A stretch of 64,000 nt of DNA, taken from NCBI GenBank assembly GCA_034189085.1, contig JAXHVH010000004.1, positions 21,821 to 85,820 of the forward strand. Direction: 5' to 3'. The notes under the pieces are model-generated. The model was not told the origin of the DNA. It saw only the letters and a program-made list of their open reading frames with translations, and ran no database searches. The translations under genes and the position numbers were made by a program. Positions 2,995 through 44,547 of the stretch are shown here, in pieces; position 1 is the stretch's first letter; each line of letters begins with the position of its first letter. This DNA comes from Bacillota bacterium. GTDB taxonomy: Bacteria; Bacillota; Dethiobacteria; DTU022.

Positions 2995-4437
2995 TTATTT
3001 TATCCCCGGATACTTTTCGCGCAGCTTTTTCTCCAAATCCTCGCTAAAACCGGGCGTCTGATGTTCAGCCAAAATACGCCGGGCCTCTTCGTGGGCTCTG
3101 GTGAAAGTGTTTTTACAGCCTGCTTCTTCCCATACGGTGCGCTGCTGCCTGTCGGCAAGCTTGGGGAAATAGAATTCGCTGCGCACGTGTTCCACGGTAT
3201 GCGGCTGATCCAGGAAATGGCCGCCGGGACCGATTTCGGCAATAATATCGGTAGCCAGGGTTTCTTTGTTTACCTCGACGCCTTTTACCGCTCTCAGGGC
3301 CATACCTACCGAATCATTGTCGACGACCATTTTTTCGTATGATAGGGTGGTGCAGAATTCTAACAGGCCGAATGCATCGTGAATGTAGTTGCAGCCCGAT
3401 AGGGCGACGACCATAGCCGTATTGGCGCTTTCATAACCGGCCTGGGCGTCCACCACTTTTGAGTCTGACATACCACCTGTTCCGTAAATCGGGATCTTGT
3501 AATACTGAGCCATCTGGGCGCAGCCGGCATTGATGAGAGCCGATTCTATACTGCCGGCCATGTATGTGCCTGTGCGCATATCCATGATGCTGGATGTGGA
3601 ACCGTAGAGGGTGGGGTTGCCCCGGTTAACCAGCTGGGCCAGAATTAAACCACCCAAAGATTCGGCATTGTTCAGGGCAATGGTCCCGGCCAGGGTGACC
3701 GGTGAGTTGGCACCGGCCAGCGGTTCGGAAGGAGTAGCGATGGGTAGGCTGCGTCTGGCTACTTCGATCAAGAAATCAGTGTAAGTTACTTCCATCAGCA
3801 GAGGGCTCATCATCAGGGTAATAAATGAAACAAAAGGCCGTTCCCTTAGTTTTTTGGCTCCTCCGGCGATATCTTCGGCCATTTTAATAACAGCTCGCAG
3901 CCCTTCCATGGTGTATATACCGCCCATTACATGTTTGGATGTATTGGCCAGGGCGTGGTAAAAGCGGTTTATGTCAACTTCTTCAGCAGGCACATCATTG
4001 GGATAGCAGTTGATGACAAAAAAAGCAATGTTATCAAGGGCATCGGTCATTTTGGCGAAGCCGGCTACATCCCTTACTTCGGTGCGCCGCTTTTTGCCTG
4101 TTTCCATGTCGAGCGTATTGAGAACCGTCCCTCCGGTTCCCAGGTGGACATTAGCCCCTTCCAGGAGGATGTCGTACTTTTCTTCCCGGCCGCATAGGAC
4201 TAAACTTGAGGGTGTAGAATCGACGGCATCCTCGATCATCGCCCGCGGAATCTTGACTATCCTGCTTTCATGATCGACGGCGGCGCCGCTGTCGGCAAAG
4301 ATCTGCCGGGCTTGCTCGTTATGCATCTTGATCCCTACTTCTTCCAGCAGGTAAACCGAAGCTTCGTGGACCGCTTTGACGTCAGCATCGCTGAAAACCT
4401 TGAAACTTCCTCCCTTGAAGTGCTTAAACATGATCAT
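2995..4437 (-). CDS. MttB-superfamily (trimethylamine methyltransferase family) non-pyrrolysine methyltransferase; putative quaternary amine (glycine betaine-type):corrinoid methyltransferase
   Basis: 480 aa continuous ORF with no in-frame TAG. Family motifs are present (GGxxT, PVTLAGT, AQ..NA, IHDAFGLLE, DQPHT). It is paralogous to the ORFs at 35969 and 43066. Confidence 0.8.
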   Translation of the reverse strand: MIMFKHFKGGSFKVFSDADVKAVHEASVYLLEEVGIKMHNEQARQIFADSGAAVDHESRIVKIPRAMIEDAVDSTPSSLVLCGREEKYDILLEGANVHLGTGGTVLNTLDMETGKKRRTEVRDVAGFAKMTDALDNIAFFVINCYPNDVPAEEVDINRFYHALANTSKHVMGGIYTMEGLRAVIKMAEDIAGGAKKLRERPFVSFITLMMSPLLMEVTYTDFLIEVARRSLPIATPSEPLAGANSPVTLAGTIALNNAESLGGLILAQLVNRGNPTLYGSTSSIMDMRTGTYMAGSIESALINAGCAQMAQYYKIPIYGTGGMSDSKVVDAQAGYESANTAMVVALSGCNYIHDAFGLLEFCTTLSYEKMVVDNDSVGMALRAVKGVEVNKETLATDIIAEIGPGGHFLDQPHTVEHVRSEFYFPKLADRQQRTVWEEAGCKNTFTRAHEEARRILAEHQTPGFSEDLEKKLREKYPGIK

Positions 4438-6196: not shown

Positions 6197-6225
6197 TGGA
6201 CAGGCAGGGCAACAAGTGTTATTAT
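6197..6225 (+). promoter_or_regulatory. sigma-70-like promoter for riboswitch transcript (TGGACA-17 nt-TATTAT)
   Basis: A -35-like TGGACA and a -10 TATTAT are separated by 17 nt. The promoter lies about 15 nt upstream of riboswitch stem P1. Confidence 0.35.
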
Positions 6226-6239
6226 AAATAAAATTGAAT

Positions 6240-6400
6240 ATTCTATTCGGGTGTCCCCTGTGGATGAAAAGGGAAACCGGTGCAAGTCCGGTGCGATCAC
6301 GTCACTGTAAGCACAAGCCAAATCCAGCAAGGCCACTGGTGAAAGCCGGGAAGGCGGAAGAGGCAATGAGTGTAAGCCAGGAAACCTGCCCGAATAACGC
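6240..6400 (+). ncRNA. Cobalamin (AdoCbl) riboswitch aptamer
   Basis: Conserved core AAAGGGAAACCGGTGCAAGTCCGGTGC...CACTGTAAGC...GTAAGCCAGGAAACCTGCCCGAAT. P1 pairs ATTCGGG with CCCGAAT. The B12 box and the GCCACTG-like elements are present. Confidence 0.8.
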
Positions 6401-6441
6401 GTAGCATTTTCCCCTTCGTGTGAAAGGGCTGGTTACTCATG

Positions 6442-6477
6442 GCGCCGTTTCAGGATCCTTTCGGTGCTTTTTTATTT
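6442..6477 (+). terminator. Intrinsic terminator (riboswitch expression platform)
   Basis: Stem GCGCCG/CGGTGC (one G-U pair), a 15-nt loop, then a U-tract TTTTTTATTT. Confidence 0.5.
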
Positions 6478-6487
6478 GAGATCAATT

Positions 6488-6520
6488 CCGGTCTTTGCTC
6501 TCTAAGGCCGGTTTTTTTTA
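6488..6520 (+). terminator. Second tandem intrinsic terminator
   Basis: Stem CCGGTCTT/AAGGCCGG (8 bp, one G-U), loop TGCTCTCT, followed by TTTTTTTT. Confidence 0.6.
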
Positions 6521-6768
6521 TTCAGCCGGCAAAGGTAAAATTGTTAATGTCCCGGAAGGCTGCCGTCTTTTTTTACTCCTTTTTTCGGCAGGCTGTTTAG
6601 CATAAACCTGTTCCGGGATTGCTGCCCCGTTAGCCTCTTCCCGAAAAGGGATGGCTGATTTGACTCAGGGAAGAGGCGGGGCTCATTTCTCGCGGAGTAT
6701 TTCAAGAATGGGAGACTGTTTTGAATTTTTATTGTAATTTTGTAATTAATAATTAATGGGAGGTTTTT

Positions 6769-7302
6769 TTGATGGAAAAAGGATATGTGCAAATTTATAC
6801 CGGCGACGGAAAAGGGAAAACCACTGCTGCCCTGGGACTGGGATTGAGAGCGGTTGGCAGTGGGCTCAGAGTGATCATGTTTCAATTTTTGAAAGGTTCG
6901 CCAAGCGGGGAATTAAAGAGTGTTACCATGCTGGGGGAAAATTTTGAGATTATTCGCCTTGCAGAAAGCAAAAAATTTTTTTGGACGATGAACGAGCAGG
7001 AAAAAAATGAATTGAAAAAGAACATGAAGGGTGAACTTGACCGGGTGCGGGAAGTACTTACCGGGGAAAAATATGATATTTTGATCCTGGACGAAATCAT
7101 GGCGGCAATCCATGGTGGATTACTATCAGTGGAAGATGTCTGCGTCCTGATTGATGCTCGGCCCCCCGGCATGGAAATGGTTTTAACCGGTCGAAGTACC
7201 CCGAATAAGCTTATCGAACGGGCTGATCTGGTAACCGAAATGCACTGTATCAAACACTACATTAACGAGAGTGTCTATGCCAGGGTTGGTATAGAGAAGT
7301 AA
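6769..7302 (+). CDS. cobO: Cob(I)yrinic acid a,c-diamide / corrinoid adenosyltransferase (CobO/BtuR type)
   Basis: 177 aa. The P-loop-like IYTGDGKGKTTAALGLGLRA is diagnostic of CobA/CobO. It lies downstream of the cobalamin riboswitch. Confidence 0.85.
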   Translation: MMEKGYVQIYTGDGKGKTTAALGLGLRAVGSGLRVIMFQFLKGSPSGELKSVTMLGENFEIIRLAESKKFFWTMNEQEKNELKKNMKGELDRVREVLTGEKYDILILDEIMAAIHGGLLSVEDVCVLIDARPPGMEMVLTGRSTPNKLIERADLVTEMHCIKHYINESVYARVGIEK

Positions 7303-7538
7303 GATTATGTTTCATCTATTTCTGCTGATAATGGAGGATGTTATATCCGGACCTCCAGATTGAACTATTTTTGTGGTGAAGGATTGATTTTATGAAACTG
7401 GAAGGTAACTGTCGCACAACGGCCATGGGCATAATGCGCGATCACTCACGTAAAATCTTACCCAAGGAGGCTATTGATTCCAAGAAGGGGTGAGATTATT
7501 TTTTACTGGTGCCCGCCAATATTTCATTACCGCTTTTG

Positions 7539-43065: not shown

Positions 43066-44547
43066 ATGCGCAGGCCGATTTATGAAGGTGGGGGTTACAG
43101 GGTATTATCGGAAAAGGAAATAAGCCGCATTCATGAAACATCAATCAGAGTCTTGAGAGAAGTAGGATTTGAGATAAACTATCCACCGGCCCTTGAGCTG
43201 TTCGAGAAAAGCGGAGCAAGGGTCGATTATGATCTAAACAGGGTTTATGTTCCCCGGGAACTGGTTTCCCGGGCGATCAAGCAGGCTCCGTCTGAATTTG
43301 TCTTTTGCGGAAGGCAGGAAGGGAAAAGCATCACTGTTGGCGGGAAACAGGTCCATTTCGGTAGCGGAGGCCTGGCCCTTTATGTCCTGGACCTTGAGCG
43401 CAATAAAAGGCCAGGGACGATCCGCGACGTGGCCGACCTGGCCAGGCTGGCCGATAAACTTGAAAATCTCGATTTTTTTATCATTCCTGTTTATCCACAT
43501 GATATCAATATCGATACCGTTGATGTCAATACAAAATATCAGGCCTTGCTCAACACCAGTAAGCCGGTGATGGGTGGTATTTTCAACAAGCAGGGTGTTG
43601 AAGATATTATTGCGATTGCTTCTATCATAGCGGGTGGGCTTGATAAACTGCAAAAACGTCCTTTTATTGGTTTTATTTCTTCCATCACCAGTCCGCTTAA
43701 AATCAGTCCGGAACACGCGGAATATATAATGATGATAGCCCGTTACGGTCTTCCGCTGGCAACTTCAACTGCTCCGACTGCGGGAGCGACGGCTCCTGTC
43801 ACCCTGGCCGGCACCCTGGTGCAGCAGAATGCGGAGGCGCTGATGGGTGTGATCTTAACCCAGTTAGTCAATCCGGGAACACCGGTTCTTTACAGTGCTG
43901 TCCCGGTAACCATGGATATGCGGACCATGTCATTTCTCATGGGCAGCATCGAATCGGGGTTGATGAATGCTGCCATTACCCAGATGGCCCAGTATTACCG
44001 GTTGCCCTGTTACCTGACAGTAGGAGCAACTGATTCCAAGCTGCCCGATGCCCAGGCTGCTCATGAAGGCGCTACAACGGCCATGCTGGCGGCGCTGGCC
44101 GGCGGGAATTACATTCATGAAGCATTCGGTATGCTTGATGGGGCAATGACTGTATCTTACGCCCAGTATGTGATCGATAATGACATCGTTGGCAGCTGTC
44201 TGCGCACCCTGCGGGGTATCGACATAAATCGGGATACTCTGGCCTTTGATATCATTGCCAAAGTTGGTCCGGGAGGCAACTACCTTGGTGAAGAACATAC
44301 TGTAAAATATATGCGTACTGAAAGTTACATGCCCCGGGCCAGTGATCGTCAGCAGTACCAACTGTGGTTTGATGCGGGAAGCAAAGACAGCTGGAAGCGG
44401 GCTGAAGAAGTGGCTGCCCAGTTGCTCCAGGAGCCGGTGGAGCCGATTATCCCGCCGGAGGTTGACGCCAGGATACGGGAAAAATATTCTGACCTGGTCA
44501 GGGTTGAAAGGAATGAAGATCTGAACACCGGGACCGGTTTAAGTTAG
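43066..44547 (+). CDS. MttB-superfamily non-pyrrolysine methyltransferase (glycine betaine-type candidate), linked to betaine importer operon
   Basis: 493 aa from the ATG at 43066 (GGAGG 9 nt upstream). It is closely paralogous to the 2995-4437 protein (GSGG, PVTLAGT, NAEALMGV, IHEAFGMLD). Confidence 0.8.
   Translation: MRRPIYEGGGYRVLSEKEISRIHETSIRVLREVGFEINYPPALELFEKSGARVDYDLNRVYVPRELVSRAIKQAPSEFVFCGRQEGKSITVGGKQVHFGSGGLALYVLDLERNKRPGTIRDVADLARLADKLENLDFFIIPVYPHDINIDTVDVNTKYQALLNTSKPVMGGIFNKQGVEDIIAIASIIAGGLDKLQKRPFIGFISSITSPLKISPEHAEYIMMIARYGLPLATSTAPTAGATAPVTLAGTLVQQNAEALMGVILTQLVNPGTPVLYSAVPVTMDMRTMSFLMGSIESGLMNAAITQMAQYYRLPCYLTVGATDSKLPDAQAAHEGATTAMLAALAGGNYIHEAFGMLDGAMTVSYAQYVIDNDIVGSCLRTLRGIDINRDTLAFDIIAKVGPGGNYLGEEHTVKYMRTESYMPRASDRQQYQLWFDAGSKDSWKRAEEVAAQLLQEPVEPIIPPEVDARIREKYSDLVRVERNEDLNTGTGLS

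Follow-up and report, generated by a model that had tools for sequence, protein, structure and literature searches.

The element of interest, a cobalamin (B12) riboswitch upstream of the adenosyltransferase gene cobO, lies within a 64,000-nucleotide (nt) stretch of DNA (hereafter, the window) from a bacterium of the soda-lake/Mono Lake Bacillota, a group labelled Syntrophomonadaceae or Dethiobacteria in the records of metagenome-assembled genomes (MAGs). On balance, the region that separates the riboswitch promoter from the cobO coding sequence is probably one cis-regulatory leader of ~540 nt: it would be transcribed from its own promoter, act as a B12 OFF switch with serial attenuation, and carry an extra conserved domain between the switch and the gene. 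The components of the region are listed below; SD denotes the Shine-Dalgarno sequence.

6197–6225, plus strand: riboswitch promoter (P_rs), TGGACA-17 nt-TATTAT, extended by TG next to the -10 hexamer (promoter scanner, 10/12 matches)
6232–6407, plus strand: cobalamin riboswitch aptamer (covariance-model match to RF00174)
6412–6428, plus strand: P13-like hairpin, CCCUU/AAGGG with loop CGUGUGA (local folds; five invariant pairs)
6420–6432, plus strand: purine-rich switch strand, GUGAAAGGGCUGG (alternative folds and RNAalifold; invariant in all lineages)
6441–6477, plus strand: terminator T1, weak and of the regulatory type (minimum-free-energy folds; 6–7 bp stem, 14-nt loop, U6AUUU tail)
6488–6519, plus strand: terminator T2, strong (scanner; 8-bp stem at 6488–6511, 8-nt loop, U8 tail at 6512–6519)
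6549–6619, plus strand: H3, a predicted three-way junction and the most conserved part of the leader (folds)
6624–6690, plus strand: H4, a long hairpin that is not terminator-like (folds, -30 to -33 kcal/mol)
6703–6771, plus strand: cobO-proximal region with the SD and a weak candidate second promoter (alignment; also in the relative L146, described below)
6772–7302, plus strand: cobO, encoding a 176-aa ATP:co(I)rrinoid adenosyltransferase of the CobA/CobO/BtuR family (PF02572, E = 1.3e-58)

Scans for CobO across genomes and metagenomes gave 145 loci, and the leader was found in only three further lineages. Together with three protein look-ups, these scans provide four distinct leader sequences in all. 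The CobO orthologues of the further lineages are 82–89% identical to that of the window:

L001: CobO 89% identical, leader present
L002 group: CobO 86% identical, six independent assemblies, leader present
L066: CobO 82% identical, three independent assemblies of identical sequence, leader present

Similarity between the lineages starts exactly at the -35 hexamer and continues, unbroken, across the aptamer, both terminators, the gap and cobO itself. Upstream of the promoter the lineages have unrelated DNA, with a C69-like peptidase gene in the window and CbiZ in L002. In 4/4 lineages the promoter-aptamer-T1-T2-H3-H4 module sits directly upstream of cobO on the same strand, and this linkage and orientation, kept despite a reshuffled upstream flank, would favour a leader that acts in cis. 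A P_rs-like promoter was also detected by the scanner in L001 and L066, and the riboswitch promoter is the only consensus plus-strand promoter of the module in the window, L001 and L066.

The degree of conservation within the module was measured between the two lineages that are furthest apart, the window and L066, with the four-fold degenerate sites of cobO as the yardstick. These sites are 47% identical; the corresponding values for the parts of the leader are:

aptamer: 81%
P13-T1-T2 block: 80%
H3 (6549–6619): 86%
H4 (6620–6690): 66%
linker and cobO-proximal parts: 61–63%

Over P13, T1, T2, H3 and H4, variable columns make up 6/110 of the paired positions versus 69/174 of the unpaired ones (Fisher p = 1.8e-11), on a structure that was derived from those same four sequences.

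The RF00174 search suggested in an earlier note on this DNA, which had reported a clear aptamer at 6240–6400, returned one cobalamin riboswitch aptamer in the window (cmscan). The match extends a little beyond the reported range on both sides, covers the full model (positions 1–189) and scores 110.2 bits against a gathering score of 31.5 (E = 1e-26); orthologous matches of 114–122 bits are found in L001, L002 and L066. The B12 box, AAGCCAGGAAACCUGCC at 6374–6390, lies in the 3' part of the aptamer and aligns to the consensus AGCCAGGAGACCuGCC in the cmscan alignment, and aptamer loop L5 (UCACG) is at 6297–6301. Transcription is predicted to start at ~6232, where the aptamer match begins. The aptamer occupies a same-strand 5' leader position before a cobalamin-related gene: the next gene on the plus strand is cobO (PF02572), as is also the case in L001, L002 and L066. 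The aptamer is probably selective for adenosylcobalamin.

Downstream of the aptamer, the leader carries a weak terminator followed by a strong one. The stem of T1 consists of GCGCCG (6442–6447) and CGGUGC (6462–6467), with a seventh pair between G6441 and U6468, and is followed by the tail UUUUUUAUUU at 6468–6477; its folding energy is about -8 kcal/mol. Terminator strength was scored as d, with the formula of d'Aubenton-Carafa et al. 1990. By this measure T1 is marginal (d = +2.9 in the window and +2.9 to +4.5 over the lineages), while T2 is strong (d = +30 in the window and +15 to +30 over the lineages). The pattern scanner matched T2 in the window, L001 and L066. It missed T1 in the window because the 14-nt loop exceeds its 8-nt maximum; in L066, T1 was flagged in a tighter register. 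The number of scanner matches is not above chance (3 found versus 2.0 expected from shuffles), and the case for T1 and T2 thus rests on conservation: both hairpins and both U-tracts are kept in 4/4 lineages, with diverging loops. The stem and tail of T1 are invariant, and the 5' half of its loop diverges in L066 while UCCUUUCG stays; the stem of T2 is retained, with a single U-A to U-G change, while its loop diverges. Both hairpins had been anticipated in the earlier note, as an expression-platform terminator at 6442–6477 and a second strong terminator at 6488–6520. Published work likewise describes regulatory terminators as weaker than regular ones, and attenuators with terminators in tandem (PMC2965389).

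Control of the two terminators may converge on the purine-rich strand at 6420–6432, which has three possible partners: (i) the 5' strand of P13, (ii) UCCUUUCG in the loop and 3' arm of T1 (6456–6463), and (iii) CCGGUCUUU in the 5' arm of T2 (6488–6496). By thermodynamic prediction, without covariation, P13 plus T1 versus antiterminator 1, and T2 versus antiterminator 2, are only 1–4 kcal/mol apart in 4/4 lineages, and the antiterminator folds are the minimum-energy ones in L001 and L002. In the RNAalifold consensus of the whole leader, pairing of the switch strand with the T2 arm encloses T1. These predictions suggest that a single aptamer gates both terminators via a shared strand; T2 could instead be a constitutive damper.

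The P13-like hairpin has an equivalent directly after the aptamer in the comparator loci (see below), and its loop sequence CGUG could kiss the CACG of L5 (6298–6301). Side by side with this, we note that A6299 and U6419 in the window allow four Watson-Crick pairs (CACG/CGUG), and that L001, L002 and L066 have a C/A mismatch at this point; the difference is perhaps a paired change, and may hint at a real kissing loop. A further pairing concerns GGCUGG (6427–6432), which can pair with UCAGCC (6522–6527) just past T2 and so close T1 and T2 into one multiloop. The partner downstream of T2 in L066 is ACCAGCC, giving a perfect 7-bp helix, and the read-through transcript may contain this long-range pairing.

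The 252 nt between the end of T2 and the cobO start codon (364 nt from the end of the aptamer) are not featureless. The earlier note had described a gap of ~240 nt followed by cobO at 6769; the long gap stands, while the start codon is better placed at ATG 6772, since homologues all begin with MEKGY and lack the TTG at 6769. The cobO SD, GGGAGG, is at 6758–6763, and the gene product also matches TIGR00708 and NF004637, both under their curated cut-offs. The gap itself holds two conserved hairpin domains. In the predicted fold of H3, an 11-bp outer stem (GUCCCGGAAGG/CCUGUUCCGGGAU) encloses two arms: CUGCCG/CGGCAG, whose pyrimidine loop (17–20 nt, G-free) has UACUCCUUU at its core, and GCU/AGC, of 3 bp. 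No fewer than 39/40 of its paired columns are invariant, leaving no covariation for or against the fold; the fold is plausible, and a sequence-specific constraint, even at the level of DNA, is also possible. H4, the hairpin of which spans 6624–6682, combines GCCCC/GGGGC with GCCUCUUCCC/GGGAAGAGGC, and has a variable loop of 25–27 nt and the tail UCAUUUCU. Its 15 stem pairs are kept through two substitutions, a compensatory one (U-A to C-G) and a change of C-G to U-G, while its loop is rewritten in L066.

We propose that the parts work together as follows. The aptamer would act as a transcriptional OFF switch. With cofactor bound, P13 would be locked—probably through an L5-L13 kissing loop, as we infer—making the purine-rich 3' strand (6420–6432) unavailable; the weak T1 would then form, and polymerase escaping T1 would meet the strong T2. 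Termination at T1 or T2 would leave short RNAs of ~245 and 287 nt. With cofactor scarce, the purine-rich strand would pair first with UCCUUUCG inside T1 and, once polymerase is past T1, would move to the 5' arm of T2, such that polymerase would read through T1, T2, H3 and H4 into cobO. H3 and H4 would be part of the same transcript, as a conserved, lineage-specific leader domain that might bind a factor or ligand, or might serve in stability or processing. Both lie past T2 without a consensus promoter of their own; hence, if they function as RNA, read-through of T1 and T2 must occur.

Several observations weigh against such a leader, or against parts of it. Covariation is close to absent: of 55 pairs, one is compensatory, three have changes compatible with wobble pairing and one is broken, which is no better than the shuffle control. 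Something other than RNA structure could account for the conserved stems, and in the case of H3 even a role as DNA element is conceivable. The stability of the 6400–6790 fold relative to shuffled sequence is not exceptional (z = -0.65). The strong T2 has an antiterminator that is predicted only, with three G-U pairs, and its extension is unconserved (in the window and L066, the RNAalifold column pairs 15-97 and 17-95 are broken). It is speculative, too, that the switch strand could pass from T1 to T2 while only ~40 nt are transcribed, as the model requires. Finally, the Logan contig L146, a sister lineage of L066 whose CobO is the closest relative of that of L066 (coding sequences 89% identical), is without the promoter, aptamer, T1, T2, H3 and H4, and keeps cobO with the proximal 70 nt. 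Alignment of L146 (256–467) with L066 (560–707) shows homology resuming ~70 nt before the ATG, just past H4; in place of the module, a divergently oriented gene lies 212 nt upstream of cobO. It follows that expression of cobO can do without the module and may start from a promoter of its own, and that the riboswitch module has been lost or replaced as one block.

A candidate for such a second promoter can be picked out by eye in the proximal region (TTGAAT at 6721–6726, TG at 6741–6742, TAATTA at 6743–6748), and is scanner-negative. A -10-like TATAAT and/or TGT-TAxTTT (the latter 17 nt past TTGAAT) is seen by eye in L001, L002, L066 and L146; in the window it is degraded (AATAAT, TAATTA). The scanner detected no second promoter in the proximal region of any lineage scanned. 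The same region contains a 20-nt direct repeat of the cobO ribosome-binding region (AATGGGAGACTGTTTTGAAT at 6707–6726 versus AATGGGAGGTTTTTTTGATG at 6755–6774, 15/20 identical), which yields a pseudo-SD 48 nt upstream of the true SD and is weak or absent in other lineages.

Other functions for the gap were considered and set aside. H4 as a third terminator (a long G+C-rich stem followed by UCAUUUCU) does not fit the d values, which are -34 in the window and -28 to -52 overall; in L001 and L002 the tail is CCAUUUCU, starting CCA. A mobile or repeated element is not indicated, with no second copy in the window, in plasmids or in ~70 cobO loci. The pyrimidine loop of H3 was considered as a cis-acting anti-SD for cobO, and its duplexes are no stronger than those of shuffled loops in every lineage. 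Three coding possibilities were rejected: a 53-aa leader-peptide open reading frame (ORF) at 6439–6600, whose ATG is lost in L001 and L002; a peptide from the conserved AUG at 6547 (MSRKAA...), the remainder of which is altered in every lineage by frame-shifting indels in the T-run, and which has no good SD by eye; and a TTG upstream ORF at 6721–6756, which is not conserved. A minus-strand ORF at 6544–6885 overlaps the cobO start and is not credible as an antisense gene. Between T2 and H3, the scanner found no consensus plus-strand promoter in the window, L001 or L066; a TAAAAT at 6536–6541 is without a -35 and is lost in L066. No sigma-54 promoter is present, by eye, near 6709. A cmscan of 6380–6800 at E <= 10 found no Rfam family, and hence no second aptamer of a described class, with chance small RNA (sRNA) matches falling far under their gathering scores. 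Neither ~70 other cobO loci nor the remainder of the window contained a match to a covariance model of H3-H4, and plasmid and viral searches did not find the pair, viral 16-mer matches being chance.

In an ANTAR (EutV) site, two hairpins each present a hexaloop whose first base is A and whose fourth is G. Such a dual-hairpin site, downstream of the riboswitch terminator, is what defines the EutX/Rli55 family (PMC5821096). The locus resembles EutX of Enterococcus faecalis and Rli55 of Listeria monocytogenes in having an adenosylcobalamin-type aptamer behind its own promoter and a terminator (T1) at the aptamer end, features that are also common to ordinary cis-acting riboswitches. In addition, B12-dependent short and long RNA forms would arise in both cases, and both have conserved, structured sequence past the terminator (PMC5821096). 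The locus differs in that the dual motif was not found in 6400–6775 (a single 3-bp hairpin has an A1/G4 hexaloop), and in that the element keeps synteny and a shared orientation with a B12 gene, which it could plausibly regulate in cis. There is also no eut or ANTAR gene among the eight flanking genes scanned within ~6 kb, although the locus of a trans-acting RNA could be anywhere:

eight genes within ~6 kb: DUF711, tocopherol-cyclase-like, MttB, C69-like peptidase, CobO, two ABC transporter genes, SerC

Membership of the EutX/Rli55 family thus fails. The earlier note had offered two interpretations, and the first of these—a riboswitch-terminated small RNA, akin to the EutX/Rli55-type decoys—finds no support in this comparison; read-through from T1 to T2 would add just the T2 hairpin (~45 nt), which also counts against a decoy. 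The second, an unusually long, structured cobO leader under double attenuation, appears to be the best fit, given the synteny of the module with cobO, the presence of H3 and H4 beyond T2 and the putative shared switch strand. A modified form of the first interpretation has a low probability: the riboswitch would, broadly as in that family, control an extension of the RNA, and H3 would be the effector domain gated in this way.

That modified form leads to the explanations that compete with a cis leader. It is unlikely, yet deserving of weight, that the module from 6197 to ~6700 is a separate gene for a trans-acting, riboswitch-gated non-coding RNA (or a dual-function RNA) with EutX/Rli55 logic: with B12, transcription would stop at T1/T2; without it, the RNA would include the effector H3—whose G-free UACUCCUUU loop would, for example, pair with Shine-Dalgarno regions or bind a protein—and would end or be processed after H4, while cobO would be transcribed from its own promoter within 6703–6757. 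The greater conservation of H3 than of the aptamer would suit an effector, as would the presence or absence of the module as one block, with the L146 breakpoint just past H4 and only the proximal 70 nt kept. The proximal -10-like elements of L001, L002, L066 and L146 (by eye) and the resemblance of T2 to a regular strong terminator point the same way, and riboswitch-gated sRNAs have precedent (PMC5821096; bioRxiv 10.1101/803072). Against a separate RNA stand the missing ANTAR dual-hexaloop site and the character of H4, which is not terminator-like in its d values or in its CCA-starting tail in L001 and L002. No second promoter was picked up by the scanner, and it is the window that has the weakest candidate. 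Linkage to cobO and orientation are kept in 4/4 lineages despite rearranged upstream flanks; the complementarity of the H3 loop to the cobO ribosome-binding region is no greater than that of shuffled loops; and no copy of H3-H4 exists elsewhere in the material searched (~70 cobO loci, the window, plasmids and viruses). A broader form of the idea is doubtful to a similar or slightly greater degree: that H3 is the working part of a B12-gated RNA, an EutX-like effector made only when cobalamin is scarce and having a non-ANTAR partner, or else an undescribed aptamer giving two-input control. As an example of effector action, the 16S-tail-like UACUCCUUUCU loop of H3 could act on ribosome-binding sites. 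This idea keeps some room because purifying selection is stronger on H3 than on the aptamer, because H3 is present or absent together with the riboswitch as one block, and because it has no Rfam match.

The aptamer alternative can also be taken in its own right, with H3 and H4 together as a second, independent sensor (an undescribed aptamer or a protein-binding attenuator) that would place cobO under two-input control, as in known tandem riboswitches. This we regard as quite improbable. Its appeal lies in the predicted three-way junction with invariant junction nucleotides, followed by a long hairpin with kept stems and a variable loop; in purifying selection on H3 that exceeds that on the aptamer; and in the position of H3 between a complete riboswitch and the regulated gene. 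Set against these are the lack of any Rfam match in 6380–6800 even at E = 10, and an H4 that is without a usable U-tract and ends ~80 nt before the SD, such that neither a terminator nor an SD-sequestering platform is evident. Moreover, no convincing alternative pairing of H3 with H4 was seen (by eye, at most 5–6 bp), only four lineages are available, with no covariation in H3, and the H3-H4 covariance model came up empty in ~70 other cobO loci. Very improbable indeed is conservation of H3 as DNA, as two similar transcription-factor sites, TGT(T)CCSGGAWKGCTGCC (6547–6564 and 6609–6626), that would act on a downstream cobO promoter and leave the riboswitch with T1 and T2 as a largely insulated upstream unit. 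The arms of H3 do also form a 14/18 direct repeat ~60 bp apart (by eye), and with all stem positions of H3 invariant, RNA and DNA constraint are indistinguishable there. The palindromic cores (CCCGG/CCGGG) from which the hairpin is built nevertheless account for these repeats; in the inner arms and H4, stems are conserved and loops vary, as is typical of RNA, and H4 has a compensatory change; and neither a downstream promoter (scanner) nor a sigma-54 -24/-12 element (by eye) was detected.

The cis-leader reading, to which we return here, can be set beside known systems. RF00174 lies directly before cobO in 7/51 of the cobO loci scanned with Rfam: three long-leader loci, plus L023, L024, L028 and L030 from Caldanaerobacter, Tepidanaerobacter and relatives, which have a P13-like hairpin and a single terminator after the aptamer. 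B12 control of cobO therefore has a precedent in other Clostridia, while the long leader has none among the other cobO loci scanned. The Caldanaerobacter/Tepidanaerobacter riboswitches (L023, L024, L030) share with the window the RF00174 aptamer, a PF02572 gene, the strand and a P13-like hairpin followed by an intrinsic terminator. They differ in having one terminator with the cobO SD within ~20 nt (as seen in L023 and L030), as opposed to two serial terminators plus 252 nt with H3 and H4; H3 and H4 are absent from all other cobO loci examined. The window also resembles tandem-terminator attenuators, such as the rimP leader of some Gammaproteobacteria (PMC2965389), in having two serial terminators of which the upstream one has a clear antiterminator alternative. 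It is unlike leaders with tandem terminators and tandem riboswitches in that both terminators follow one aptamer and may share a switch strand, and unlike tandem riboswitches in that the second structured block, H3/H4, matches no known aptamer class (cmscan).

Further observations concern these loci and other parts of the window. Two separate cobalamin riboswitches flank cobO in Caldanaerobacter and in a related MAG from the Clostridia (L023, L024, L028; ~2553–2899 and 3579–3818), the downstream one lying right after cobO and serving the next gene; in L028, ~165 nt with a promoter-like TTGACA/TTGTCA separate the riboswitch terminator from cobO. In the window, a 33-codon ORF after cobO (7392–7493, plus strand; MKLEGNCRTTAMGIM...) is the N-terminal remnant of a 338-aa gene, which is intact directly downstream of cobO in L146 (1096–2112) and has the same beginning in L001 and L002. 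The 338-aa protein has no Pfam or NCBIfam match, and the ancestral unit was probably cobO plus this gene. The end of the L066 contig (~1325–1347) is CTGTCTCTTATACACATCT, a Nextera transposase adapter and thus an artefact of untrimmed assembly in the public record. Elsewhere in the window, two PYLIS_3 (RF02510) matches, at 44026–44125 (plus strand) and 3372–3471 (minus strand), lie inside MttB-family methyltransferase genes (the MttB gene at 2995–4437 is PF06253). At the UAG pyrrolysine codon of the model these matches have GCA and AUG, and the genes look like non-pyrrolysine MttB homologues that may keep a PYLIS-like sequence. The organism appears rich in corrinoid-dependent methyltransferases.

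The aptamer, its association with cobO and its terminator platform are known biology, and feedback on an adenosyltransferase by a B12 riboswitch is expected. Less usual are (i) the pair of a weak and a strong terminator, possibly sharing one switch strand, and (ii) a domain of 140–180 nt between the switch and the gene, conserved to the same degree as the aptamer and confined to one soda-lake lineage of Bacillota. Two serial terminators on one switch strand would be a simple way of tightening an OFF switch. Should H3 and H4 prove to be a mere stability element, the locus would be an ordinary riboswitch with a long leader; a role as gated effector or second sensor would instead add a case outside the eut system to the few regulatory RNAs under riboswitch control.

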